Assembly (NCBI GenBank): GCA_965223855.1
Contig: CBDCXM010000009.1
Location: 1,696,001-1,760,000 of the forward strand
Reading direction: 5' to 3'
DNA length: 64,000 nt
Source: Candidatus Multivoradales bacterium
Lineage (GTDB): Bacteria; Acidobacteriota; Thermoanaerobaculia; Multivoradales; JAHEKO01
The notes under the pieces were generated by a model that did no database searches, was not told where the DNA came from, and was given only the letters and a program-made list of their open reading frames with translations. The position numbers were made by a program, and so were the translations under genes. Position 1 is the stretch's first letter. The number at the start of each line of letters is the position of its first letter. Below, piece after piece: positions 3,239 through 27,677 of the stretch.

Positions 3239-6200
3239 CTAGGCGGTAGCCGGTTCCTCCTCGCTGCCGGCGCGGGCGGCGAGCCGGGCCCGGAACTTCT
3301 CCCGCATCTCGAGGACCAGCGAGAAGAGGGCCGGCACGAGGAAGAGGGTGAAGGCGGTCGAGACGGCGAGGCCGCCGACGACGACCGAGCCGAGACCGCG
3401 GTAGAGCTCGGAGCCCGCCCCGGGGAAGAGCACCAGCGGCAGCATGCCGCAAAGACTGGTCGAGACGCTCATGAAGATCGGGCGGATGCGGGTGCGGGTC
3501 GACTCGCGGATCGCCGGCGTCGGTTCCATGTCGTCCTCGCGCATGTGGTTGAGCGCCTGGTGGACGATCAGGATGGCGTTGTTGACGACGGTGCCGATGA
3601 GGATGATGAAGCCGAGCATTGTCAGCACGTCGAGCGCCTGGTAGCTGAAGAGGTTCAGCACCCCGAGGCCGAGGAAGCCGCCGAGCGCCGCCAGCGGCAC
3701 ACTGAAGAGGATCACGAACGGGTAGAGGAAGCTCTCGAAGAGCGCCGCGATCAGCAGATAGGTGATGACGATCGCCAGCAGCAGGTTCCACTGGAGCGCC
3801 CGCCGCGTCTGGGTCAGCTTGTCGGCGCTTCCCGAGTAGGTCACCCGGTAGAGCCCGCCGATGCGGCCGCCGTCGCGCATCGGCTGCAGGATCGCCGTGT
3901 CGATCGACTCCATCGCCGATTGCAGCGGGATCTCGTCGGGCGGCGTCACCTGGATGGTGATCGTCCGCTCGCGCTCGCGATGGTCGATCTGTACCGGGCC
4001 GTTGACGAGCTCGACCTGTGCCACCGAGCCGAGCGTCACGACCTCGCCGCCGGGAGTGGCGATCGGCATCTGCTCGAGCAGGTGAGTGCGCTGGTCGAAG
4101 GTCGTGTCCGCCTTCAGGACGAGATCGATCTCGCGGCCCTGATGCTGGTAGTCGGTCGCCTTGGCGCCGTCGATGAGGGCGTTGACGACGTAGCCGAGCT
4201 CGCGGTTGGAGATGCCGAGCGCGGAGGCGCGCCGGCGGTCGGTCTGGACGCGGATCTCCGGGTTGCCGAGGTCGAGCCCGGGGATCGGGATCGCCTGAGC
4301 GCCGGGCAGCACCTGCTGGATCTTCCCCATCACCTCGCCACCGAGGCCGATCAGCCGGGTGAGGTCGGGGCCCGTGATCTCGACGTCGATGTTGCGGCCT
4401 TCACCGAATCCGCTCGAGAAGATCGACGACTGCGAGACGAAGGCGATCGTCCCCTGCAGGTTGCCGTTGACCTGCTGGATCGCATCGACCAGCTCGCGCG
4501 CTCTGAGCGGGTCGGTGGCGCGCGCCCCCATGAACGCCTGGTTGGCGAAGACGCCGAAGAAGAAATGATCGATGCCTCCTCCGGGGAGTGCCTCGGCCTC
4601 GGCACCCGTCGCTTCCCACAACGGGCTGAGTTCGCGGTCGTAGATGTCGTTGAACGCCGCGACGGTGTCGATGTTGTAGCCCGGTGGCGGCAGGGCGAAG
4701 CCGAAGACGAAGTTCATGTTCCCGAGTGGCAGGTACTCCGCCTTCGGCACCAGCAGGATCGACAGCAGGATCGCGCCCAGCGTGAAGCCGAGCACCACCG
4801 CGACGCGGCGCCCGGTGGTCGAACAGATCCATTCGACCCGGTCGGCGATCCACTGCGCGACGCGTGCGAACTTCGGCGCCCACCCCCAGAGATTGGCGAA
4901 GCCGCCGTTGCCGCTCGGCTTGCGGTCGGCGGCGTCGAGCATCTTGGCCGACAGGCTCGGAATGACGGTGATCGCCACGACCAGGCTGAGGCCGACGCCG
5001 CAGCTGATGGCGATCGCGATGTCGCGGAAGAGCTGCCCCGCCTCCTCCTGCACGAAGAGGATCGGCACGAAGACGGCGATCGTCGTCAGCGTGCTGGCGA
5101 GCACCGCCCCCCAGACTTCGCGCGCACCGTCGAAGGCGGCGTCGAAGCGCCGCTTGCCCATCTGCCGGTGGCGGTAGATGTTCTCCAGGACGACGATCGA
5201 ATTGTCGACCACCATGCCGACGGCGAACGCCAGACCAGCCAGCGAGATGACGTTGAGGGTACGGCCCAACGCGTTCATGGCGAGGAACGAGCCGATGATC
5301 GAAATCGGGATCGCCGCCGCGACGATGAAGGTGCTGGTGCGGCTGCGCAGGAAGAGCAGCAGCGCGGTGATCGCCAGAATGCCGCCGAGGACGAGGCTCT
5401 GGCGCACCAGCCCGATCGCGCTGTAGACGTAGTCGGTCTCGTCGTACGCCTGGGTGAGGCGAAGGCCCCGGTCGGCGAGCAGCTCGTCGTTGAGATCGGC
5501 GACCGTCGCCTTGACGCCGCGCATGGTGTCGAGGACGTTCGCCCCCGGCTCCTTGATCGCGTTGACGGCGATCATCTCCTCGCCGCGGTAGAAGATCTTT
5601 GCCCCCGGCTTCCGGTACCCGAGCTCCACCTTCGCCAGGTCGCGCAGATAGAGCGGGACGCCGCCGCGCACGGCGACCACGAGGCTCTCGATCGACTCCG
5701 GCGAGTTGAACTCGCCCACGGTGCGCACGACGTAGCGCCGCTTGCCCTCGGCGAAGTCGCCGCCGGAGAAATTGCGGTTCTCGCGGTCGAGTGCCGCGGC
5801 GAGCTCGTTGACGGTGACGCGGTGGGTCGCGAGCGCCGCCGGGTCGAAGATCACCTGCATCTCGCGTTCGCGGCCGCCGAAGAAACCCGACTGAGCGACC
5901 CCCGGGACCCGTTCGATCGCCGGCTTGATGTGGTCGTCGACGAAGTTGTGGAGTTTCCAGATGTCGTCTTCGTAGGGCTCCTCGCCGTGCGGTTGGAGGA
6001 TGAACCAGGCGATGGCGCTCCGGTTGGGGTCGGAGGTGAAGAGCACCGGCTTCTGAGCGTCGTCCGGGTACGACGGCACCTGCTCGAGCCGGTTGGAGAC
6101 CTTGAGCAGGTTGGCGTTCTTGTCGCTGCCGACGGCGAAGGTGAGAGTGATGGTGCCCGACGAGTCGGAGCTCGAACTCTGCATCTTCACCAGCCCGTCG

Positions 6201-14626: not shown

Positions 14627-15814
14627 ATGCACGGCTCGCCCGGGTCGAACGACGGCGTGATCGACAGCTCGACCGACGGCCAGGTGCTCGCCCGGGCCTG
14701 GCAGCAGTGGTGCCGCGGGCCGTGGTGGCTGCACGTCGTCGCCGTCGCCTCCCTGGCCGCTCTGGCGGCGCTGCGCAGCTGGCCTGTCGTCGCGAACCTC
14801 TCCGAGCCGCTGGGAGACGAGGTCTGTTACCTGCGCGCCTTCGAGAGCGTGCTCGCCGGCGAGTCGCCGTTCGAGCAGCCGTGCTACGTGTACCCGTCCG
14901 TGGTCGCCCTGACGGGCGGCCTCGGCTTCGAACTCCTCGGCAGGGATGCCACGGTGGCGCTGATGCGCGCTCTCAACCACGTCGGCCTCGGATTCGCCGC
15001 GTGGATGGCGGTCGGCTGGCTGCCGGCCTCGTGGATTCGCCGCGCCGCCGGCGCCGCCGCCTTCGTGGCTCTCGCACCTCAGGCGGTCTACTCGGTGCGC
15101 TTCGGCAACCTGTCGATGCTGGCGGTCGGCCTGATCCTGCTGGCGCTGGCCTGTGGGTCACGGCGGCCGCTCACCGGAGGGGGGCTGCTCGGTGCGAGCA
15201 TCGCCGTCAAGCCGCTGGCACCGATGGTGGCGTTGGGGTGGCTCCTGGCGGGCCCGACCCGAGCGTTGCGCCTCGCCGGGGGCGTCGCGCTCGGAGCGGC
15301 GGCGCTGCTGGTGCTGGCGTTCCCCCATCTCGACGACCTGCTGGCGCTCCATCGCACCGACAAGGTGGTGCGCACGGTGACCTTCCATCGCTTCCCGCCG
15401 CTGCTCGGCCTCGAGACGAGTGCGCTGTGGATCTCGTTGCCGCTCGCGCTCGGGTTCCTCTGGTGGTTGGTCAGAAGCGAGCCGGGACCGGGACAGCGAC
15501 TGGCGCTGCTGACCGTCGCCTGCCTGGCGGTGACCCCGGTGGTGTGGAGTCACACCCTGGTGCTGGCGTTGCCGCTCGAAGTGATGGTCGGCACCGTCGC
15601 GTGGCGTCGCTGGTCGCGACGCAGGGCTGCCGTCGCCGGCGCCTGGATCGAGCCGGCGTTCGTGGCCGTGGCCGTGGTGGCGATCCAGTTCGCCGCCGGA
15701 GCCGGAGGAGTCGACGATCGGGCTGTGGCGCTGCAACTCGTGGCAGGGGCGGTCCCGGGCTTGGCGCCGATCTTCCTCGTCGCCTACCTGTTGCGCGCGA
15801 CGGATCGGTTCTGA
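14627..15814 (+). CDS. GT-C membrane glycosyltransferase-like protein (GT87/DUF2029-like)
   Basis: GDEVCY..A, YVYPS, RFGNLS, SIAVKP and PVVWSHT patterns; multi-TM. Confidence 0.7.
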   Translation: MHGSPGSNDGVIDSSTDGQVLARAWQQWCRGPWWLHVVAVASLAALAALRSWPVVANLSEPLGDEVCYLRAFESVLAGESPFEQPCYVYPSVVALTGGLGFELLGRDATVALMRALNHVGLGFAAWMAVGWLPASWIRRAAGAAAFVALAPQAVYSVRFGNLSMLAVGLILLALACGSRRPLTGGGLLGASIAVKPLAPMVALGWLLAGPTRALRLAGGVALGAAALLVLAFPHLDDLLALHRTDKVVRTVTFHRFPPLLGLETSALWISLPLALGFLWWLVRSEPGPGQRLALLTVACLAVTPVVWSHTLVLALPLEVMVGTVAWRRWSRRRAAVAGAWIEPAFVAVAVVAIQFAAGAGGVDDRAVALQLVAGAVPGLAPIFLVAYLLRATDRF

Positions 15815-15929
15815 GGGTCGGGTTTCGGGGTCCGGAACGGGCTCGGCGCGGGTCCGGAATGCGGCCAGAGCCCTATGCTAAGGTCCACCGGATCGAGTCG
15901 TGCCAATCGAGGGGCGAGGAGGAGGTTTC

Positions 15930-16775
15930 ATGGCGAAGAAGAAGACGTTCCGGATCAAGGATCTGATGGTCACCGTGCTGCCGAAGCACGTCAGGGTCGC
16001 CCAGTGGCACTGTCTCCACGCGACGGTCTGCCGCCTCCCGAGTCGCGACGCGGACTTCGACGACTACGACGCCCAGGACTGTGGCCCGCCGGGCACCGCG
16101 ATCACCAGCCCCGGGGGTCACTGCCGGGAGGGGGTGAACACCCTCTTCCCATGTGATCCGGGCGAGGCAACGGTGACGGTCTGGTGCAACGACATTACCG
16201 ACTGCGACGGCGCCAACCTCTCCTACGACGTGGACTGCAAGGAGGGCGAGACTTCGATCGATCCCTGCGACGCGAGAGTCGCGCCGACCAATTGCCAGGG
16301 CGTGGTCGCCTCCGACGATGCCTGTGACCAGGGCCAGGGCAGTGACTGTTTCTGGGGAGTCGCGTCGGACTGTGAGGGCGATGGCGGCAGCGAGTGCCCG
16401 GCGCTGGCGGGTTCCGAGTGCGACGACGAGCCCGGTGCCGACGGTTCCCAGTGCCCCGCGCTCGAGGGGTCGCAGTGCGACGACGGCGGAGAGGGTGCGG
16501 CCTCCGGGTGCACCCAGCTCGACGGCTCGGCCGGCGAGATCTGCGGCATCACCGAGCCGTCGGCCTGTGGCGGCGAGAGCGCGATCGGCCTCAACTTTTC
16601 GCGTGTGAACGGCCTCGACGCACTGAAACGCGAACTACGTCAGGCGCTCAAGCAGGTCGAGTCGTTCGAGAAGGCGAAGTATCTCGAGGTGGCGGGACGC
16701 ACGCCGCTCGACGAGGAGGAGCGCCAGCGCCTCGCCCGCAGGGTCACGGAGAACTTCACCGGCGACGATCGGTGA
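15930..16775 (+). CDS. Cys/Ser/Thr-rich acidic protein, putative giant lanthipeptide precursor (281 aa)
   Basis: Strong GGAGG RBS; 20 Cys alternating with Ser/Thr; C-terminal amphipathic helix; directly upstream of the lyase and kinase-LanC genes. Confidence 0.8.
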   Translation: MAKKKTFRIKDLMVTVLPKHVRVAQWHCLHATVCRLPSRDADFDDYDAQDCGPPGTAITSPGGHCREGVNTLFPCDPGEATVTVWCNDITDCDGANLSYDVDCKEGETSIDPCDARVAPTNCQGVVASDDACDQGQGSDCFWGVASDCEGDGGSECPALAGSECDDEPGADGSQCPALEGSQCDDGGEGAASGCTQLDGSAGEICGITEPSACGGESAIGLNFSRVNGLDALKRELRQALKQVESFEKAKYLEVAGRTPLDEEERQRLARRVTENFTGDDR

Positions 16776-16810
16776 GGGCGCCGTCAGGAGCCTGAGCCGG
16801 CGATCCTCGG

Positions 16811-17995
16811 GTGGCCGGCACGCTGACTCAGCTGCGTGAGTTGGCCGGGGTCGGTCTGCGGGCCGGCCGTGGCTACACACTGCGTTCCCTGGAGGAGATC
16901 AGCTCCGAGGAGCGTGAGGCGCTCGGTGCCGCCGCCGACGATCCGGCGGCGGTGGCGTTGTTGCTTCCCTCCGAGGGGAGCGGGCTGACGGTGAAACTGC
17001 TCGACTCGAGGACAGCGGAACTGTTCCGCTCGCTCGAGTCGTCGGTCTCGCGGAGTGAGCTCGCCGAGGGCCCGCAGGCGATCCAGGTCGCCCGGCTGAT
17101 CGCAGACGGCGTACTGGAGATCGAAACCTCCGACGGGTTCGTCGGTGGGCCGGCGTCGCTCCCCTTTCTCCTGGATCCGGTTCCGGATCCCGACGCCATG
17201 TCGGGGCGGGCGGCCCGCCTTGCCGTCGCGGCGGTCCGCTACGGTGCGAGTCTGGGGAAACTGCCCGCGCCCCTGCTGGCGATGCGGCTCTATCACTTCC
17301 ATCGTCTTCCCGAGTCGCGCGGATGGAGGCGGCGCCTGCCCGACGACGAGGCGGTGGATGCCTATCTCGGGATCAGCGAGGGAGAGACCGGACGACTGCT
17401 CGAGAGCACATGGATACCGATCGCCCGTGACGAGCCGAACCCCTACTGGCGGATCTGGCGGCATCGCAATCCACCGCCGGTGAGGCGACGCAGAAGGGCT
17501 ACCTGGAAGCTGTACGTGAGTCCGCTGCTCACCGACCTCCCCTCCCTTCTGCCGACAGTGGTTCGCGTCCTCGGCGAGCTTCAGGTGCCGAACTTCAAGA
17601 TCGGGCGCGGCCTCGGCGGGCTGCTGCGACCCGACAAGATCGTCTCCTACTACTGGTCGAAGGAGCATGCCGAGCGCACCCTCCGGCGCCTGGCCGCCGA
17701 GTTCGAGGGAGTCGCGGCCCACGGAGTGCCCTTCGCGGCGGTTCCGTCGGGAAACGGGTTGATCTCTCTCGGCGTCGATCCGCCGCGCGAAGAACATGTC
17801 GCCCCATGGCTCGAAGGGGCGAGCTACCGGCTGTGGGTCTGTCGCTTCCTCGCCGCGGCGCTGCGTCCGTGCGCGGCGCGGGGGATGCCGGTCGACGATG
17901 CCGCCCGCTTCGCTCTCTCGCGACTGCACCTCGAGGGTGTCGATGTGGAAAGCTGGACGCCCGACCCTGAGCGACTGGACTTCCTCGATGACTGA
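16811..17995 (+). CDS. Stand-alone phosphoSer/Thr lyase-like protein (HopA1/LanY-like) with N-terminal RRE-like domain
   Basis: TWKLYVSP...NFKIG...LLRPDKIVSYY...GVPF...GVDP motifs resemble OspF/HopA1-type lyase domains; overlaps the start of the kinase-cyclase gene. Confidence 0.72.
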   Translation: MAGTLTQLRELAGVGLRAGRGYTLRSLEEISSEEREALGAAADDPAAVALLLPSEGSGLTVKLLDSRTAELFRSLESSVSRSELAEGPQAIQVARLIADGVLEIETSDGFVGGPASLPFLLDPVPDPDAMSGRAARLAVAAVRYGASLGKLPAPLLAMRLYHFHRLPESRGWRRRLPDDEAVDAYLGISEGETGRLLESTWIPIARDEPNPYWRIWRHRNPPPVRRRRRATWKLYVSPLLTDLPSLLPTVVRVLGELQVPNFKIGRGLGGLLRPDKIVSYYWSKEHAERTLRRLAAEFEGVAAHGVPFAAVPSGNGLISLGVDPPREEHVAPWLEGASYRLWVCRFLAAALRPCAARGMPVDDAARFALSRLHLEGVDVESWTPDPERLDFLDD

Positions 17996-20342
17996 AGCGC
18001 TCGATCTGACCGCCGCGTTCGTTCTGCCGCGCCACGCACATCTGACCCCGATCGAAGAGCTTCCGGACGACCAGCGCGAGCAGGTCGGCGGCGAGCCTGG
18101 CGAGTCGGCCCTGACCCTCGCCTTCGGGCGGGCGGGCTCGAAGGTCGTGGACGGACCGACCGCAGAGCTGCTGACCCTGTTTCGAGAGCCGAGGACGATC
18201 GTCGAAGCGGTGATCGAGTTCGCGTCGGCCGAAGGTCTCGATCCCGAGGAGACCCTCGAGGCGGCCTACCCGGTGCTGTCGCGGCTTCTGGCGGCAGGCT
18301 ATCTGGTTCCGGCGGACTCGCCGGCCGCCGATCCGCCGCAACCGCGTTTCTCCCAGGGGGACCGTGTCGGGTCGTGGGAGGTCCGACGATGCATCCGGAT
18401 GATGCTCGATACGGAGATCTATCTCGCGCGCGGCGAAGAGGGTCGGGCAGCGATCAAGGTCGCGAGGGAGGCCGACCGATCTCACCTCGAGAGACGGTTC
18501 GACCGCGAGCGGCGGATCTACGAACTCCTCGATGGACTCGAAGTGGTGCCGAGGTTCCTGGGTAGCGGCGAGGTCGAAGGCAGGCCGTACCTCGTTCTGG
18601 AGTGGTGCGCCGGCCACCCCTCCAACTCGCCTCACGTCCGGTGGGGAGCGACTCGCCAGGCGCATCTCGAGTTCGCGGCTCGGACGCTCGAGGCCTATCG
18701 GCGCCTTCACGAACGCGGCGTGCTGCATGGTGACGTCCACGCCGAGAACCTGATGATCGCGTCCGACGGCGAGGTCCGGCTGATCGACTTCGGTGCCGCG
18801 AAGGTGCTGGACGCCTCCGACGAGCTCGGGCGGGCTCCGAGAATGGGAGTCGCCTACTACTACGAACCGGAGTACGCGGCCGCACTCGCCGCCGGTCGAC
18901 GCGGCCCGCCGGTCACCCTCGAAAGCGAGCAATATCGCATCGCGGCCGTTCTCTACAGCCTCCTGACGGACGCCCACTACCTGGACTTCAGGCTCGAACA
19001 GAGCGAGATGCTCGAGGCGATTCAGACAGACCCGCCGCTGCCGTTCACCCATCACGGTGTAGCGGGTCAGGAGGCTGTCGAGCGTGTCCTGGCGAGAGCG
19101 CTCGAGAAGAGCCCGGAACGGCGGTTCCCCTCCACTTCCGACTTCTGCGAGGCGTTCGCCGAAGCGCTGGACGAAACCCCTGCCGCTCCGGGCCTTTCGG
19201 CCGGACTCCTCGATCAGGCGGAGGGCGTCGTCGCCGAGCTGCTGGAGAACGCGGCCCCGGACGGGGTCTGGGTGCGGAAGGGGCTCGCCGCCGCTCCCCG
19301 CGCCTCGATCAACACGGGAGCTGCGGGCGTCGCGGTCGCGCTCGCCCGGATCGCCGAGATCCGCGATGATCCGGTGGCGCTGGCGACGGCCGACGTCTGG
19401 GTGGCGCGAGCGTTGAGCGATCTGGGCGACCACGAGGCGTTCTTCGGGCCCGACGGCGAGCTGCGCGAAGACATCGTCGAGGAGGTCTCGCTGTTCCACT
19501 ACGAGCCCGGGCTTCATGTCGCCGACGCAATCGTTGCGCAGCTGCTCGGAGATCGGCAGCGAGCCTCGGTGGCCGCTCGTCGCTTCATCCGCTCCTGCTC
19601 GCGCGAGTGGGAGAACCCCGATCTGACGCTCGGTCGGACGGGTGCCCTCATCGGATCCGCCATTCTCGTCGACAGACTCGGCGCCGATGAGTCCCTCCTC
19701 TCCTTTGGCGCCGAAGTCGAGTCGAGCGTCTGGGACTCGCTTCGGCACAAGTCGCCGATCGCCGGGCCCGAAAGCTCGTTCAACCTCGGCCTGGCTCACG
19801 GCTGGGCGGGGGTTCTCTTCGCCTCGATGCAGTGGAGTCGCGTCTCCGGGCTGCCGCTTCGCGACGAAGTGGAAGAGCGCCTCGACCAGCTCGCCGCACT
19901 GGCACAACCTCACGGCCGTGGAGTGCGCTGGCCGTGGTACCTCAAGGGGGAGAACCGAGAGCCTGTCTACATGCCGGGCTGGTGCAGCGGTGCGACCGGC
20001 CACGCGTTGCTGTGGGCGGAGGCGGCGCGGTCGTTCGACCGCGACGCCTATCTCGGACTGGCGAGCGGGTCGGCCTGGTCGGCGTGGAGAACTCCGTTCG
20101 GCTCCGATCACCTGTGCTGCGGTGCTGCGGGTGGCGCCTTCGCGATGCTGCGGCTTCATGGAACGACCCTCGAGCCGGATTGGAAGGTCCGGGCGCAGCG
20201 TCTCTTCCAGAAGTCCCTCGTACCTCCGGCGGAAGAGGCGAACTCGCCCGCCAGCCTCTATCGGGGGCGAACGGGAATCGCCCTGCTTGCCGCCGAACTC
20301 GAGGGGGACGCAGCGGCGCGGATGCCGATGCTCGAAGTCTGA
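17988..20342 (+). CDS. Ser/Thr kinase-LanC cyclase fusion (lanthionine synthetase lacking an internal lyase domain)
   Basis: Kinase: AAIK, HGDVHAEN, LIDFG, YYEPE. LanC: GxxG repeats, NLGLAHGWAG, GWCSGATG, HLCCGAAG, LYRGRTG. Confidence 0.9.
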   Translation: MTEALDLTAAFVLPRHAHLTPIEELPDDQREQVGGEPGESALTLAFGRAGSKVVDGPTAELLTLFREPRTIVEAVIEFASAEGLDPEETLEAAYPVLSRLLAAGYLVPADSPAADPPQPRFSQGDRVGSWEVRRCIRMMLDTEIYLARGEEGRAAIKVAREADRSHLERRFDRERRIYELLDGLEVVPRFLGSGEVEGRPYLVLEWCAGHPSNSPHVRWGATRQAHLEFAARTLEAYRRLHERGVLHGDVHAENLMIASDGEVRLIDFGAAKVLDASDELGRAPRMGVAYYYEPEYAAALAAGRRGPPVTLESEQYRIAAVLYSLLTDAHYLDFRLEQSEMLEAIQTDPPLPFTHHGVAGQEAVERVLARALEKSPERRFPSTSDFCEAFAEALDETPAAPGLSAGLLDQAEGVVAELLENAAPDGVWVRKGLAAAPRASINTGAAGVAVALARIAEIRDDPVALATADVWVARALSDLGDHEAFFGPDGELREDIVEEVSLFHYEPGLHVADAIVAQLLGDRQRASVAARRFIRSCSREWENPDLTLGRTGALIGSAILVDRLGADESLLSFGAEVESSVWDSLRHKSPIAGPESSFNLGLAHGWAGVLFASMQWSRVSGLPLRDEVEERLDQLAALAQPHGRGVRWPWYLKGENREPVYMPGWCSGATGHALLWAEAARSFDRDAYLGLASGSAWSAWRTPFGSDHLCCGAAGGAFAMLRLHGTTLEPDWKVRAQRLFQKSLVPPAEEANSPASLYRGRTGIALLAAELEGDAAARMPMLEV

Positions 20343-20365
20343 CCGGTCGCGGCGTCCGGTGGCGG

Positions 20366-22735
20366 TCAGGCCCGCTCGGGTACCCAGGCCAGCCCCACGA
20401 GGTGCACTTCGACGTCCGCACGTCGGGGCCGCAGCTCTTCGGTCGTCAGCTCCTGGTGCATCGGGTCGAGGCTCTCGCGCAGGGCGTCGATCTCGCGTTG
20501 CGCCTCGGCGTCGAGCTCCTGGATCTCCGCCTGAATCGCTTCGATGTCCTCTTCGGCGCGATCGACGTCCTGCGAGTCACGCCAGGAGCGGGTGGCGCTG
20601 CGCATCGCGGTACCGGCGTTGCGGCGCACGCTGCGGCCGAGCACGGCACCGAGCAAGGTGGTGCCGATGTTGACGACGGTGTCGAGCTTCACCTGCCGGG
20701 CCTGCTGCTCTTCCTTCTCGCGGCGTTGCTCGGCTTTCCTGAGGCGCTCTTCGAGCTTCTCGATCTGGCCGGCATACTTGTCGCGCAGAGCGTCGAGCCT
20801 GGCGTCGCGCTCCTCGCGGGTGGCGTGCTGCAGTCGAACGCGGAAGTCGCGCTCGCTCTCGCCCGGCTCGGCCACCAGCCCGAACGCTTCGCTCTCCATC
20901 AGCTCGAGCTTGCGGTTGCGGTAGAGCCACTCTGAGAAGTCCTTCGTCCACGCGCTCCACGACTTCGACTGCGCCGCTTCGGACGGTACCGAGGCGAACT
21001 GGGCATCGGCGACCGGCACCTCCTCGAGACGCGAGGCGGGGACGGCGCTCATCTCGACCCGTTCCCAGTCGACCGGTACCGTGCCGTCGGTCAGCGGCGC
21101 GAGCACGGTGAGCTCCTCGGAGGTGTCGATGTCGTGCTTGCGATCGACGAAGTGCACCGTCGCCGCTCCGACGAGCCGGGGTTCGTAGCGCACCGCCGCG
21201 CCAACGGGAAGATCGCGGGCGGGCAGGAAGTACTGCTCGATGTCGGGATCGAGCACCGGTCTAGCGGAGGCGGCCTTCACCGGCGTGGCGGCTGGAGCTT
21301 CGTCGCGCTCACCGCCGGCGGGCCGCCGCCCGTCCATCAACCTTCGGATCTGATCGCGGGTCATCGGCCCGCGCAGGTAGGAGAGTACCCAGCGGGTCTC
21401 GAACACCACCGGGCCGTCGTCATGAACGTTGTGGAGCAGGAACTTGCGCTTGCCGAGACCGGCGAGGGTCTCCTCCATCTCGCCGCGATCGAAGCGCCCG
21501 GCGGCACCGGCGGAGGCTCCCTCGAGACCGTCGAGCACGCGGTTCTTGTCGCGAGCCGTCTGCAGGCGGCCGATGAACCACGAGCCGGTGTTCGAGAGCC
21601 CCTTGTAGTCGAGGTCGACCGGGTTCTGGGTCGCCAGCACGACGCCGACGCCGTGCGCCCTTGCCTGTTTGAGGAGCGTCAGCAGCGGGCGCTTCGAGGG
21701 TGGATTGGCGACCGGCGGCATGTAGCCGAAGATCTCGTCCATGTAGACGAGGGCGCGCAGGCTGCTGGTGCCCGGCTGCGACCGGGTCCAACCGAGGACC
21801 TGGTTGAGCAGGAGCGAGACGAAGAACATCCGCTCCGAGTCGTCGAGGTGAGCGATCGAGAAGATCGCCACTCGCGGTTTGCCGGTGTCGGTGTAGAGGA
21901 GGCTCTGGACGTCGAGCGACTCCCCCTCCATCCAGGCTGAGAAGCCGGGAGCGGCGAGCAGGTTGTTGATCGTCATCGCCAGCTTGAACCGCTCCGAGGC
22001 AGGGTAGAAGGCGTCGAGATCGATCACACCCACCTTGTCGATCGGCGGATCCTGGAGGCTCTGGATGACCGCCGGCAGATCGAGATCGCGACCCTCGCGC
22101 CATTCGTGGTCGAGGATCGTCGACAGCAGGATGTGCTCGCGGCTCTGGAGGGCGTCCGCTTCGATGCCTACGAAGCCCAGGAGGCTCGAGACCGTCGTGC
22201 TGATGCGGTCGCCGAAGAGCTCGGCGTCTTCGATCACCTCACGCGGTGGGGCGCGGAAGGAGTCGAGGATCGACACCGGGATTCCGGCCGACGAACCGGG
22301 AGTGTAGATCGCGAAATCGGCGGCCTCGCGCAGTCGCCGGATGCGATCACCGTCCTGTCCCCATGAAGCGAGCCCCTTGCGCCACAGCTCGGCCTGGCCG
22401 GCCGCATACTCGGCTGGCGTCAACCCGTCCTTGCGGGCGTCGTCGGCGTTGATCCACGGCTCGAAGTCCTCCGGAGCGAGGTCCGGGAAGGTCAGGAGCA
22501 GGTTGCCGAGATCGCCCTTCGGGTCGATGACGATCGCCGGGACGCCGTCGATCGCCGCCTCCTCGAGCAGACCGATGCACAGCCCGGTCTTGCCGCTGCC
22601 GGTCATGCCGACGCATACCGCGTGCGTCGTCAGGTCCTTCGAGTCGTAGAGCAGCGGCACCCCGGCCGACTCGCCCGACCCGAGGTCGTGCGGCCGGCCG
22701 AGGAAGAACGCCCCCAGCTTTTCGTAGTCCTTCAA
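20366..22735 (-). CDS. HerA-like/DUF87 P-loop ATPase with C-terminal coiled coil
   Basis: HAVCVGMTGSGKT, IDPKGD, YMDEIFG, LATQNPVDLDYK; TTG start. Confidence 0.88.
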   Translation of the reverse strand: MKDYEKLGAFFLGRPHDLGSGESAGVPLLYDSKDLTTHAVCVGMTGSGKTGLCIGLLEEAAIDGVPAIVIDPKGDLGNLLLTFPDLAPEDFEPWINADDARKDGLTPAEYAAGQAELWRKGLASWGQDGDRIRRLREAADFAIYTPGSSAGIPVSILDSFRAPPREVIEDAELFGDRISTTVSSLLGFVGIEADALQSREHILLSTILDHEWREGRDLDLPAVIQSLQDPPIDKVGVIDLDAFYPASERFKLAMTINNLLAAPGFSAWMEGESLDVQSLLYTDTGKPRVAIFSIAHLDDSERMFFVSLLLNQVLGWTRSQPGTSSLRALVYMDEIFGYMPPVANPPSKRPLLTLLKQARAHGVGVVLATQNPVDLDYKGLSNTGSWFIGRLQTARDKNRVLDGLEGASAGAAGRFDRGEMEETLAGLGKRKFLLHNVHDDGPVVFETRWVLSYLRGPMTRDQIRRLMDGRRPAGGERDEAPAATPVKAASARPVLDPDIEQYFLPARDLPVGAAVRYEPRLVGAATVHFVDRKHDIDTSEELTVLAPLTDGTVPVDWERVEMSAVPASRLEEVPVADAQFASVPSEAAQSKSWSAWTKDFSEWLYRNRKLELMESEAFGLVAEPGESERDFRVRLQHATREERDARLDALRDKYAGQIEKLEERLRKAEQRREKEEQQARQVKLDTVVNIGTTLLGAVLGRSVRRNAGTAMRSATRSWRDSQDVDRAEEDIEAIQAEIQELDAEAQREIDALRESLDPMHQELTTEELRPRRADVEVHLVGLAWVPERA

Positions 22736-24533: not shown

Positions 24534-25798
24534 TCGTCGTCGGTCGTATCCGGCTGAGGTGCCGCAGCCGCGGCCGGTTCCGAGCCTCGAACCGGGCTTT
24601 CACGGATCGAATACAGCAACCAGCGCGCATCCCACGGACCGACCGAGATCGGATGGCGCTGGTCGGCGCGGAGGCCGAGGTGGCGCGACCACTCCGGCGA
24701 GCCGCTGAGGACGCCGGCCCTGGCCCCCGGACAGCGTCTGAGGAACGTCCCCAGCGCGCGCCACGCCGCTTCCGGGCCCTCTCCGTCGGCGACGTCGCCC
24801 TCGCCGAGCCGCCCACCCCAGGGAGGGTTGGCGGCGACGAAGTCGATCGGGCCGGGAGGCTCGGCATCGGCCGCATCGGCGACCTTGAAGCGGACGAGCC
24901 GATCGACCCCCGCCTGTCGCGCCGCCTGACGGGCGATGCCGACGGCGCCGGGGTGGACATCGCTGCCTGCCAGGAGCGGTGCCGCTTCCCGGATCCGGAA
25001 GCGGTCCGCGGCCTCCTCTCGAAGCTGTGCCCAGAGCTTTGTCGCAGCGCCGGGGAACCTCTCCGCCGCGAAACTGCGCCCGAGCCCGGGAGCCCGGTCG
25101 GCGAGCCGGGTCGCGGCTTCGAGCACGAACGTGCCGGAGCCGCACATCGGGTCGACGAGCGTCGCCTCGGGCGCCCACCCGAGGAGCTCGAGCAGGCCGG
25201 CGGCGGTCGTCTCCGGGAGCGGGCTCCTGACCTGAACCGGCCGGTAGCCCCGCCGGTGCAGGCTGCTGCCGGCGAGATCGCGGAACAGATGGGCGTCGTG
25301 GTCGCGCACGATCAGCCGGATCGGCACGTCGGGATCGTCCCGGTCGACGTCGGGGCGCGAACCGAGGCGGTCGCGGATGCGATCGACGATCGCGTCCTTG
25401 ACCCGCAGCGCAGCGAAGTTGCGGTCCTTGAGTCGCGAGCGCGACAGTGTCGCCGCGACGGCGAAGGTGTGGCTGCGGCCGACGAGCTCCTCCCAGCGCG
25501 GCGTGGAGGCGAGCTCGTAGAGGGTGTCGGGGTCGTGCACCCGGCCGGTCAGGACCGGCTCGAGCACCCGGACGGCGGTGCGCGACCACAGGAGCGTGCG
25601 GGCCGCCAGAGCTGCGTCGGCGGCGAACAGCGCACCACCCGGTACGACCGTCACGCTCCGCGAGCCCAACGCGCGCAGCTCTTCGGCGAGCACCGCCTCG
25701 AGTCCGCGGGCGCACTGCGCCAGATGACGCAGACGCGACGGGGCGCGGCGCCTTCCCTTCGGTTTGCGCTGCCCCTTCCGATGCGGGCCTCGGGCCAT
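24530..25798 (-). CDS. THUMP-domain RNA methyltransferase (RlmL-like)
   Basis: GLEAVLAEEL, SLHRRGYR, DPMCGSGT and NPPWG motifs. Confidence 0.9.
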   Translation of the reverse strand: MARGPHRKGQRKPKGRRRAPSRLRHLAQCARGLEAVLAEELRALGSRSVTVVPGGALFAADAALAARTLLWSRTAVRVLEPVLTGRVHDPDTLYELASTPRWEELVGRSHTFAVAATLSRSRLKDRNFAALRVKDAIVDRIRDRLGSRPDVDRDDPDVPIRLIVRDHDAHLFRDLAGSSLHRRGYRPVQVRSPLPETTAAGLLELLGWAPEATLVDPMCGSGTFVLEAATRLADRAPGLGRSFAAERFPGAATKLWAQLREEAADRFRIREAAPLLAGSDVHPGAVGIARQAARQAGVDRLVRFKVADAADAEPPGPIDFVAANPPWGGRLGEGDVADGEGPEAAWRALGTFLRRCPGARAGVLSGSPEWSRHLGLRADQRHPISVGPWDARWLLYSIRESPVRGSEPAAAAAPQPDTTDDD

Positions 25799-25952
25799 GC
25801 GGGAACCCTATCGCGGCGCCACGGGTCTACTCCTCGGGCGGGCGAGGTTCGCCGCCAGGCCTCGAGTCGCCGGCCGCGGGAACTTCGAGCCCGCTGCGCC
25901 CGTTGTAGCGGTTGCCGATGCCGGGAAACCGTGCCGCGCGAAGCGGCCCGTT

Positions 25953-27677
25953 ATGATCGCCGACGTGAACAGAGTGCTCCTCGCAGTCCTGCTGGTGACG
26001 CCGATGCTCGCCTGCGCCTCGGCATCGCCGACGCCGCAGGTGCGTCAGACCTACTCACCGATCGAGACCGACGCCTCTGTCGACGCCGGGGAGCCGGTGG
26101 CCGAGCTGGCGCCGGCGGAGGCCGTTCCGGTCGACGCCTTCACCGACGAGGAGGCACCGCCGTCGGCGGAAGAGGTGCTGCGCCAGTCGCTCGAGGCGTA
26201 CGAATCCGCCGAGAGCTTCTGGATGGAGGGCGCCTACGAGGACGCCTTCGACGCGCTCGATCGAGCCTACGAGTTGATGGCGGGTGTCGATGCCGACGGG
26301 GAGGCGCTACTGGCCCAGGAGAAGCAGGACCTGCGGCGGCTGATCTCCCGCAAGGTCACCGAGATCTACGCTTCGCAGCGGACGGTGGTCGGCGACTACA
26401 CCGGTTCGATTCCGCTCGACGTCAACAGCTACGTCGAGCGCGAGATCGCCAGCTTCCAGGGGCCCGAGCGGGCATCGTTCCTCGAGGGGTACCGCCGCTC
26501 GGGCTGGTACCGGGAGCAGATCCTCGCCAGTCTGCGCGAGGAAGGGATGCCTGAGGAGCTCGTCTGGCTGCCGATGGTCGAGAGCTGGTTCAAGGTGCGG
26601 GCGTTGTCGCGTGCCCGCGCTCTCGGCATGTGGCAGTTCATCCCGTCGACCGGCTACCGCTACGGCCTCAAGCGCACCTCCGACATCGACGAACGGATGG
26701 ATCCGGCCAAGTCGACGCGAGCGGCACTCGCCTATCTGAGCGATCTTCACGCGCTCTTCGGCGACTGGCTGACCGCGATCGCCGCCTACAACTGCGGCGA
26801 GGCGCGGGTGCAGCGGCTGCTCCGGCAGCAGAGCGAGGGGTATTTCGACCAGTTCTGGGATCTCTACGAGAGGCTGCCGCGCGAGACGCGGCGCTACGTT
26901 CCGCGCTTCATCGCCACGGTGCGGATCCTCTCGGACCCGGCCGCCTACGGCTTCTCCGACCTCCCGGCGCCGCTTTCGCCGATGGAACTCGAACGGATCG
27001 AGACCAGGTCGAGGGTCCGGCTCGCCGACCTGGATCGACAGCTCGGTCTGCCCGAAGGGTCGCTCGCCGAGCTCAATCCGGAGCTGCGGCACAAGGCCAC
27101 TCCGGGCGGTCTCTACGAGCTGGCGGTGCCCACCCAGCGGGCGGAAGCGGCGCTGGCGAAGCTCGTCTCGATGCCCGAGGCCGCGCCGGCGGCTGCGGCA
27201 TCGGGCTCGGTCCACCTGGTCCGTCGAGGCGACACGCTCTCGAGCATCGCCCAGCGCTACGGCACGTCGGTGAACTCGCTGATGCGGCTCAACGGCATTC
27301 GCAACGCCAACCGGATCTCGCCGGGCCAGCGGCTGCAGGTCGACGGCACGGCCCCGGCCGCCGGCAGCTCGTCGGGGCAGCCGACGACCTACACCGTCCG
27401 TCGCGGGGACAGCCTGTGGATCATCGCCCGGCGCTTCGGCACGACGGTCGATCGGATTCAGCGCGACAACGGTCTGCGCGGGACGAACCTCACGCCCGGG
27501 CAGCGCCTCACCCTTGTCGCCGGCACCAGCGGACGCACCTACGTGGTTCGCAGAGGCGACACCCTCGGCAGGATCGCCAGCCGCAACCGCGTCTCGGTAC
27601 AGCGGCTGGCGCAGGTCAACGGCCTGACGCTGCGCAGCACGATCTATCCGGGGACCAGGCTGCGGATCCCCAACTAG
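25953..27677 (+). CDS. MltD-like lytic transglycosylase with three LysM domains (lipoprotein)
   Basis: Lipobox MLAC; PMVES, GMWQFIPSTG, AAYNCGE; three VRRGD(T/S)L LysM repeats. Confidence 0.93.
   Translation: MIADVNRVLLAVLLVTPMLACASASPTPQVRQTYSPIETDASVDAGEPVAELAPAEAVPVDAFTDEEAPPSAEEVLRQSLEAYESAESFWMEGAYEDAFDALDRAYELMAGVDADGEALLAQEKQDLRRLISRKVTEIYASQRTVVGDYTGSIPLDVNSYVEREIASFQGPERASFLEGYRRSGWYREQILASLREEGMPEELVWLPMVESWFKVRALSRARALGMWQFIPSTGYRYGLKRTSDIDERMDPAKSTRAALAYLSDLHALFGDWLTAIAAYNCGEARVQRLLRQQSEGYFDQFWDLYERLPRETRRYVPRFIATVRILSDPAAYGFSDLPAPLSPMELERIETRSRVRLADLDRQLGLPEGSLAELNPELRHKATPGGLYELAVPTQRAEAALAKLVSMPEAAPAAAASGSVHLVRRGDTLSSIAQRYGTSVNSLMRLNGIRNANRISPGQRLQVDGTAPAAGSSSGQPTTYTVRRGDSLWIIARRFGTTVDRIQRDNGLRGTNLTPGQRLTLVAGTSGRTYVVRRGDTLGRIASRNRVSVQRLAQVNGLTLRSTIYPGTRLRIPN

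Follow-up and report, generated by a model that had tools for sequence, protein, structure and literature searches.

A three-gene locus of a Multivoradales bacterium probably encodes a very long lanthipeptide-like precursor together with a split lanthionine synthetase

We analysed a 64,000-nucleotide (nt) stretch of Candidatus Multivoradales bacterium (Acidobacteriota; assembly GCA_965223855.1, contig CBDCXM010000009.1, positions 1,696,001 to 1,760,000), referred to below as the window. Three of its genes, P0001, P0003 and P0271, form a tight operon arrangement of about 4.4 kb, all on the + strand. They encode a 281-residue protein rich in Cys, Ser and Thr, a protein predicted to have the fold of phospho-Ser/Thr lyases, and a fusion of a Ser/Thr protein kinase domain with a LanC cyclase domain. 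P0001 is very probably a substrate of lanthionine-forming machinery. The fuller reading that we favour, and judge likely, is that P0001 is a very long LanA-like substrate of a three-gene split lanthionine synthetase module, chemical steps included. An earlier note on this DNA had already read P0001 as a lanthipeptide precursor. That reading gains from the lyase, kinase and zinc-type LanC genes next to it, from the recurrence of this gene order across phyla and from the predicted binding of the leader to the lyase; the Cys-to-Ser/Thr spacing on which the note had dwelt is not conserved. The features of the locus, with window coordinates and the basis for each, are as follows.

15930..16775, + strand: precursor gene P0001, 281 amino acids (aa), comprising leader, core and helical hairpin (translation; GC content at third codon positions 0.865; homologues upstream of the lyase).
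15945..15983, + strand: conserved N-terminal recognition (leader-like) motif, residues 6-18, TFRIKDLMVTVLP (precursor alignment A4; predicted lyase contact).
16011..16580, + strand: Cys/Ser/Thr core, residues 28-217, acidic and Gly-rich (residue counts; shuffles; no AlphaFold2 fold).
16599..16763, + strand: C-terminal helical hairpin, helices 224-256 and 262-278 (AlphaFold2 block-mean predicted local distance difference test score, pLDDT, of 79-95 over residues 231-280; A4 conservation).
16811..17995, + strand: putative stand-alone phospho-Ser/Thr lyase P0003, 394 aa (AlphaFold2; Foldseek; a second structural aligner; invariant residues).
17988..20342, + strand: kinase-LanC fusion P0271, 784 aa from the ATG at 17988 (Pfam; NCBIfam; motifs).

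The ATG of P0001 begins 4 nt downstream of AGGAGGAGG, and GC content by codon position in its frame (0.66/0.51/0.87) resembles that of neighbouring genes, as for a coding sequence. The earlier note's description of the core was borne out. A script count agrees with its 20 Cys between residues 28 and 213 and with its 26 Ser/Thr (15 Ser and 11 Thr, from the first Cys to 5 residues beyond the last), and all twelve of its C-x5-S/T heptads, from CREGVNT to CGITEPS, were found. Every one of the 20 Cys is followed by a Ser/Thr before the next Cys. The central stretch has the 8-residue period that had been claimed, with Cys-to-Cys gaps of 8, 8, 8 and 8, after which 8 and 11 alternate. The core is also rich in Asp, Glu and Gly as stated, with 28 Gly, 26 Asp and 13 Glu among 192 residues against 5 Lys plus Arg. 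The other major residues are Cys and Ala (20 each), and by this composition count the core has a large net negative charge. Shuffled sequences do not reproduce the spacing. A Ser/Thr stands at position +6 from 12 of the 20 Cys, which 0/20000 full shuffles reach (mean of the maximum over all offsets, 5.5); when the Cys positions are held fixed, 12 or more are again reached by 0/20000, the best shuffle giving 9. Complete alternation of Cys and Ser/Thr (20/20) never arose in 20000 full shuffles, and among the Cys-fixed ones it arose at a frequency of 0.0001.

P0001 matches no family in Pfam or NCBIfam and has no usable match in ESM Atlas, and a word-seeded homology search returned itself only (1/755 candidates). 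A search for paralogues in the window's genome gave one match each for the P0001 and LanC queries. Relatives of P0001 were reached only via the adjoining lyase gene, and a precursor hidden Markov model (HMM) was seeded with the Cys-rich open reading frames (ORFs) adjoining the lyase in four relatives and run for three rounds. Alignment A4 (20 members) shows a conserved N-terminus, M..F-x-x-K-D-L-M-I-x-V-L-P, and a conserved C-terminus, L..LK.QLR..L..VE followed by P.T..E.E.LE..L..AL..L...K. The core between them is hypervariable among relatives and cannot be aligned save for its Cys. A hypervariable core between conserved ends is the pattern of RiPPs (peptides made on ribosomes and modified after translation), unlike that of a folded domain. 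AlphaFold2 gives the P0001 core no predicted fold (pLDDT below 50), and a disordered core followed by a helical C-terminus is what would be expected of a core peptide before modification. A search of a large protein collection with the A4 profile returned 12 proteins at E <= 1e-5, none informatively named.

Members of the precursor family range from about 60-90 aa with 1-6 Cys up to 240-380 aa, and P0001 is an expanded, unusually acidic member. Six others (L041, L042, L048 at 5069-5974, L054, L058 and L060) repeat a unit of ~18-25 aa 5-8 times, the unit being C-T-D-C-T-T-Q-A-F-S-I-C-G-T-[ST]-P plus a Gly/Pro linker. Precursors of this type come from metagenome-assembled genomes (MAGs) of Thermoanaerobaculia and other Acidobacteriota and look multi-core. 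Other cores have a period of three residues, (C-[ST]-x)n: these include L025, L033, L036-L038 and the Phycisphaerales precursor L034:4959-5909 (+), whose core of 166 residues includes 43 Cys and 55 Ser/Thr. At L039, L065 and L076 the precursor HMM matches two ORFs each, and some modules may thus have several substrates.

The second gene, P0003, starts 35 nt downstream of P0001, with a TTG at 16841 as the alternative start. Its product comprises an N-terminal domain (~1-125) that is the predicted leader-binding site and a domain of the HopA1/LanY/OspF lyase fold (124-390). P0003 belongs to no Pfam or NCBIfam family, Pfam HopA1 being unmatched at E <= 0.01. At E <= 0.001, 1271 representatives of clusters at 50% identity are related to it; the named homologues listed are all 'hypothetical protein' without Pfam domains, the closest of them from Thermoanaerobaculia MAGs. 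A fold search was needed because a PDB profile search by sequence with the lyase alignment A1 gave nothing below E 0.1. The AlphaFold2 model, built from 46 relatives, has a mean pLDDT of 90.4. Its top Foldseek match in the PDB is LxmY of the lexapeptide dehydratase complex (E 1.9e-6), followed by HopA1, the lyase domains of SalKC, ThurKC, CuvL and PneKC, and then SpvC/OspF. A second structural aligner gave Z 15.6 for HopA1 (227 aligned residues, root-mean-square deviation 4.2) and Z 14.9 for LxmY (231 aligned). The lyase domains of CuvL, ThurKC, SalKC and PneKC span Z 10-14 (CuvL 14.2, ThurKC 13.7), and the effectors OspF and SpvC gave Z 10.8 and about 9-10. These matches cover model residues ~124-390, and unrelated folds start at Z about 7.

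The invariant residues of the lyase family alignment include K233, Y235, K263, R273, D275, Y280 and R340. The spacings within K263-R273-Y280, 10 and 7 residues, equal those of K219-R229-Y236 in CaoY, where according to the available part of the published account K219A abolishes and R229Q impairs elimination (PMC9486802). By the same spacing and the same partial source, K233 would occupy the position of SpvC Lys104 and CaoY Arg187, and Y235 that of the SpvC acid His106 (PMC9486802). Compared by spacing with the OspF-type residue set (catalytic Lys base, Tyr, phosphate-binding Arg and Lys-x-His), K263, R273 and Y280 are invariant, and K233-x-Y235 would take the place of the expected K-x-H. P0003 is predicted to supply the lyase otherwise lacking beside the kinase-LanC protein, so that kinase, lyase and zinc cyclase would all be encoded at the locus.

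The ATG of P0271 overlaps the P0003 stop by 8 nt. Its Ser/Thr protein kinase domain (~18432-19127) scores 65.8 bits against Pfam Pkinase versus 42.3 bits against APH, and its LanC cyclase domain (~19305-20333) scores 90.8 bits against LANC_like. LanL (NF038150) is the best NCBIfam match, at 141.4 bits versus a cut-off of 650; LanKC (NF038151) scores 98.8 bits versus a cut-off of 575. The kinase motifs AIK, HGDVHAEN and DFG are intact, as are the LanC motifs GLAHGWAG, WCSG and LCCG, with a zinc site of three Cys ('CCG'). We take this Cys3 site to be of the type found in the substrate-tolerant ProcM enzymes. The LCCG/CCG motif is present in 64 of the 65 ORFs that pass a kinase-plus-LanC motif screen, the exception being an unrelated kinase. 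In a PDB sequence search with the kinase-LanC protein (P0004), PknB is the best match for the kinase, and LanCL1, a glutathione S-transferase, is among the matches (E 1.3e-11). The ~130-150 aa before the P0271 kinase domain resemble the N-terminal domain of P0003 rather than a lyase, the similarity being weak (BLASTP E 0.003).

The conserved N-terminal motif of the precursor has its predicted docking site on the lyase N-terminal domain. Complex prediction with the lyase (alignment A1) and precursor residues 1-45 (alignment A4) gave a score of 0.78 (runs 0.78, 0.81 and 0.73) versus 0.02 for the best control. The 0.78 mark is reached by 58/80 solved complexes and by 2/110 mismatched pairs, a rough guide given that our own alignments were used here. 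At least 56% of contacts are common to the runs. Precursor residues 5-21 are placed on lyase residues 30-101, most tightly residues 8-15 against 60-65 of the strand 58-65, with further leader contacts at lyase residues 152-157 and 330-349.

The arrangement of the three genes recurs widely. Related loci were collected by a pattern scan of contigs from one genome per species, using a lyase subset alignment (A3) whose members share one decapeptide, and 74 loci were obtained; a scan seeded by P0003 alone gave 295 pattern matches with no relative among them. The loci come from Acidobacteriota (including Thermoanaerobaculia, Vicinamibacteria, Bryobacterales and others), Actinomycetota, Gemmatimonadota, Chloroflexota, Alpha-, Beta- and Gammaproteobacteria, Nitrospira, Planctomycetota, Eremiobacterota, Bacteroidota and Bacillota. 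By blastp, the window lyase is matched in 72/74 and the window kinase-LanC protein in 73/74, and no other ORF of the window recurs in these loci. An HMM search found a precursor homologue in 66 of 83 loci, nearly always on the lyase strand and stopping just short of the lyase start. Four of the 17 without one could not be judged because the lyase match there has an upstream stretch of under 200 nt. Closer to the window, P0003 is matched in 9/61 relatives of its genome (the window included), and the lyase profile matches 8 genomes of a 401-genome sample of the phylum, with four candidates per genome scored.

Two loci from the family and genus of the window's genome, L016:5575-5793 and L018:3472-3696, show a different sub-architecture. 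Their lyase frames (275-277 aa) lack the N-terminal domain, the ORF before the lyase has 73-75 aa and 1-3 Cys, and a ~900-aa kinase-containing ORF lies upstream. A further lyase profile match, G037:C41:9361-10551 (-), carries one in-frame TAA; the single-protein search gives the G037 lyase as a stop-free 408-aa open frame with slightly different coordinates.

We compared the spacing of Cys and Ser/Thr across the family in 25 dereplicated cores with 393 Cys. These derive from the 28 with a definable start among 55 sequences having five or more Cys; 27 sequences without a motif-set start and 3 near-duplicates were left out. In 23 cores the Ser/Thr offset from Cys seen most often is a downstream one; in none is it upstream, and 2 cores are tied. 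The preferred offset is +4 in most proteins, +5 in three, +3 in one and +1 in the (C-T-x)n types. In 17 pooled cores, with the window and the period-3 types excluded, +4 is observed 104 times versus 37.0 expected (z 13.0) and -2 is observed 53 times versus 37.8 expected (z 3.0). Cys and Ser/Thr counts are correlated across the 25 cores (r = 0.89, median Ser/Thr to Cys ratio 1.14). As a family-wide rule, a Ser/Thr follows Cys at a short, set distance, at about 1:1. A fixed downstream offset with this stoichiometry favours pairing of Cys with a downstream Ser/Thr, which is the rarer orientation among known lanthipeptides. The earlier note had placed Cys N-terminal to its partner in this way, and the offsets of 23/25 cores agree with it; P0001 taken alone is ambiguous.

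Under the favoured reading, P0001 would be processed in a defined sequence of steps. The N-terminal strand motif (residues ~6-18) would dock on the N-terminal domain of the lyase, and presumably also on the related domain of the kinase-LanC protein. The Ser/Thr kinase domain would phosphorylate Ser and Thr in the core, the HopA1/LanY-like lyase would remove the phosphate to leave dehydroalanine or dehydrobutyrine, and the Cys3-zinc LanC domain would add neighbouring Cys thiols. The product would carry up to about 20 (methyl)lanthionine rings in a row, with Cys most likely paired to the Ser/Thr downstream of it, at +6 in P0001 and at +4 in most relatives. It would probably retain the C-terminal helical hairpin and act as a cross-linked protein, in contrast to small secreted antibiotics. 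The order of the genes, their domain identities and catalytic motifs, the synteny and the sequence statistics are observations, to which this scheme adds the chemical steps, the pairing within rings and what becomes of the product. By the usual marks of a LanA, the gene adjoins those for dehydration and LanC cyclisation, its core combines Cys with Ser/Thr, and its leader is recognized in silico.

Several observations weigh against this reading. At 281 aa, P0001 far exceeds any lanthipeptide precursor known to us. A LanA is typically short (<120 aa) and loses its leader to a dedicated protease or transporter, and P0001 shows neither trait: all-against-all clustering found no protease or transporter family common to the 74 loci, which is mild evidence against the cleavage and export of a classical peptide, and inspection of the translation found no evident signal peptide. 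One mining pipeline discards ORFs over 120 aa, as the accessible text describes it (PMC7268733). The spacing evidence is also mixed. The earlier note had named beforehand, as an outcome counting against it, a C-x5-S/T spacing that is not kept in homologous precursors. It is not kept: relatives mostly have C-x3-S/T, P0001 alone among the 25 cores prefers +6, and in the 17 pooled cores +6 is depleted (13 observed versus 35.9 expected, z -4.5). Within P0001 itself, Ser/Thr at -2 almost matches +6, occurring at 11/20 Cys (0/20000 shuffles). Six Cys have the +6 pattern alone and 5 the -2 pattern alone, and this near-equality makes the pairing ambiguous from the window sequence by itself. On the enzyme side, the spacing suggests that a Tyr in P0003 replaces the catalytic-acid His of OspF and LanL. 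A recognition domain common to the lyase and the kinase-LanC protein is plausible but weakly supported, because the lyase N-domain profile matches just 5 kinase-LanC ORFs at E <= 1e-3. Finally, the complex score is the model's own confidence, and the fold of the partner is itself uncertain, its pLDDT being at least 47 and falling under 50 in at least one run.

In one alternative, the modified core would be cut into many small lanthipeptides and the hairpin discarded as a follower. The tandem units of ~18-25 aa in the six L041-type precursors, the 8/11-residue periodicity of P0001 and the short family members would all suit such a polyprotein. We nonetheless consider it decidedly unlikely: a protease next to the module is not conserved across the 74 loci, inspection of the translation found no cleavage motif, basic or of the Gly-Gly type, that recurs in the P0001 repeats, and a tandem-repeat scan of the core DNA gave just a 9-base-pair, 2.1-copy repeat (16053-16071). 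The conserved hairpin also exceeds what a follower would need. At the other extreme, P0001 might not be modified at all and be a disulfide- or metal-stabilised structural protein, with the enzymes nearby for regulation (P0001 acting as a kinase substrate or scaffold). Its length, its hairpin and the lack of a conserved protease or exporter do set it apart from classical RiPPs. A disulfide protein, however, would call for an oxidising compartment, for which there is no evident signal peptide, and AlphaFold2 gives the core no fold; conservation of the ends alone is the RiPP pattern, and the lyase is the predicted binding partner of the leader. We regard this explanation as very improbable.

An intermediate possibility is that dehydroamino acids do form but that LanC, acting like LanCL proteins, adds an external small thiol or closes few rings, leaving free Cys as metal or redox ligands in the manner of a metallothionein. 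The P0001 core, rich in Cys, Asp, Glu and Gly and strongly negative, is compatible with this, as are the CxxC-like (C-T-x)n runs of relatives, which reach 43 Cys and resemble metal-binding sequences. Kinase-linked LanC domains group with human LanC-like proteins in a published tree, as far as the accessible part of that paper goes (PMC7268733); LanCL1 is among the PDB matches noted above, and the module has no conserved exporter. A near 1:1 ratio of Cys to Ser/Thr at a fixed offset nevertheless fits intramolecular pairing, and metal binding alone predicts neither. In addition, the other enzymes known to have a CCG zinc site are intramolecular cyclases, according to the available text of PMC11251773. 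We judge this explanation unlikely as well, and continue with P0001 as the likely precursor of a lanthionine-containing product.

Lanthipeptide classes are defined by the arrangement of their dehydration and cyclisation activities. Like the class IV LanL enzymes (VenL, SgbL, CuvL), the module combines a lyase of the OspF type with a Ser/Thr protein kinase and a LanC cyclase of the zinc type. LanL, however, is one lyase-kinase-cyclase polypeptide, whereas the lyase of the module is separate and has its own N-terminal domain; the zinc ligands of LanL are Cys-Cys-His (CHG) rather than the Cys3 type (CCG); and class IV precursors are short leader-core peptides, unlike those of the module, which have about 60-380 aa and a conserved C-terminal hairpin. 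P0271 falls below the LanL cut-off although LanL is its best NCBIfam match. The class III LanKC cyclase lacks zinc ligands, whereas P0271 keeps WCSG and LCCG and also scores below the LanKC cut-off. In class V (LxmKY, CaoKY), as in the module, a stand-alone lyase of the HopA1 fold (LanY) lies beside the kinase, and CaoY has the same Lys-Arg-Tyr spacing as P0003. The class V kinase is the APH-type LanK, whereas that of the module is of the Pkinase type and PknB-like. Class V pathways are without a canonical LanC in the portions of the literature compared, whereas the module kinase is fused to one. At the first active-site position P0003 would have Lys, as in OspF and LanL, where CaoY has Arg, judging from the spacing.

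ProcM-type class II systems resemble the module in their CCG zinc triad and in having hypervariable cores behind a conserved recognition sequence. The accessible text of one survey describes the CCC-type cyclase as more reactive (PMC11251773). The LanM dehydratase domain (DUF4135) of these systems has no match in the module, where dehydration would instead fall to the kinase and lyase, and the many prochlorosin precursors are scattered over the genome, whereas the module has one, much longer, beside its enzymes. The effectors OspF, SpvC and HopAI1 share the fold of P0003 (Z 9-10.8), and the Lys, Arg and Tyr positions appear to be conserved between them. They are secreted, whereas P0003, read from its genes, would be an intracellular biosynthetic enzyme beside a kinase and substrate. 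Class VI (LanKCb of streptococci) was ruled out because its fused architecture differs, by the description in the available part of a review.

Among the neighbours, P0002 (14627-15814, + strand) encodes a 395-aa polytopic membrane protein with a match to glycosyltransferase family 87 (GT87) of 18.8 bits versus a cut-off of 25. It was rejected as part of the module, as were a PALP enzyme, a phosphoenolpyruvate (PEP) carboxylase and a HerA-like ATPase, because none recurs in the related loci. A 789-aa ORF at 20366-22735 (- strand) converges on the module and has weak HerA/DUF87 and TrwB P-loop matches over residues 23-80 only. Further on, a 637-aa protein at 25764-27677 (+ strand) with an SLT lytic transglycosylase domain and three LysM repeats resembles an ordinary cell-wall enzyme. 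A promoter and terminator scan over 15600-20700 found nothing.

The module combines the kinase and zinc LanC of class IV, the stand-alone HopA1-like lyase of class V and the ProcM-type CCG site of class II. Its split of kinase, lyase and zinc cyclase differs from every class described in the literature compared, in the parts of those papers that were available. In one survey, the pairing of lyase-type dehydratases with CCC cyclases is among the predicted new combinations, and its accessible text does not describe the system of the module (PMC11251773). We found no description of the split architecture or of the long precursors in a full-text literature search that covered few subscription journals, and an earlier description is possible. 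Precursors of this length are excluded by standard mining because pipelines discard ORFs over 120 aa, to judge from the partial text of PMC7268733.

More speculatively, and with considerable doubt, the module may represent an undescribed class of lanthionine machinery that makes 'lanthiproteins' of 150-300 aa. Each would be a reverse-orientation thioether array, which could have up to 20 rings in P0001 and up to about 43 in relatives, carried on an oligomerising hairpin and serving soil Acidobacteriota and many further phyla as a cell-associated material with a structural, metal-binding or stress-protective role. If the proposed chemistry is true, lanthionine enzymes process substrates with 20 or more rings, and a leader-plus-enzyme set would be available for stapling long polypeptides. 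Uncultured soil phyla would then hold a large, overlooked reservoir of thioether-cross-linked proteins.

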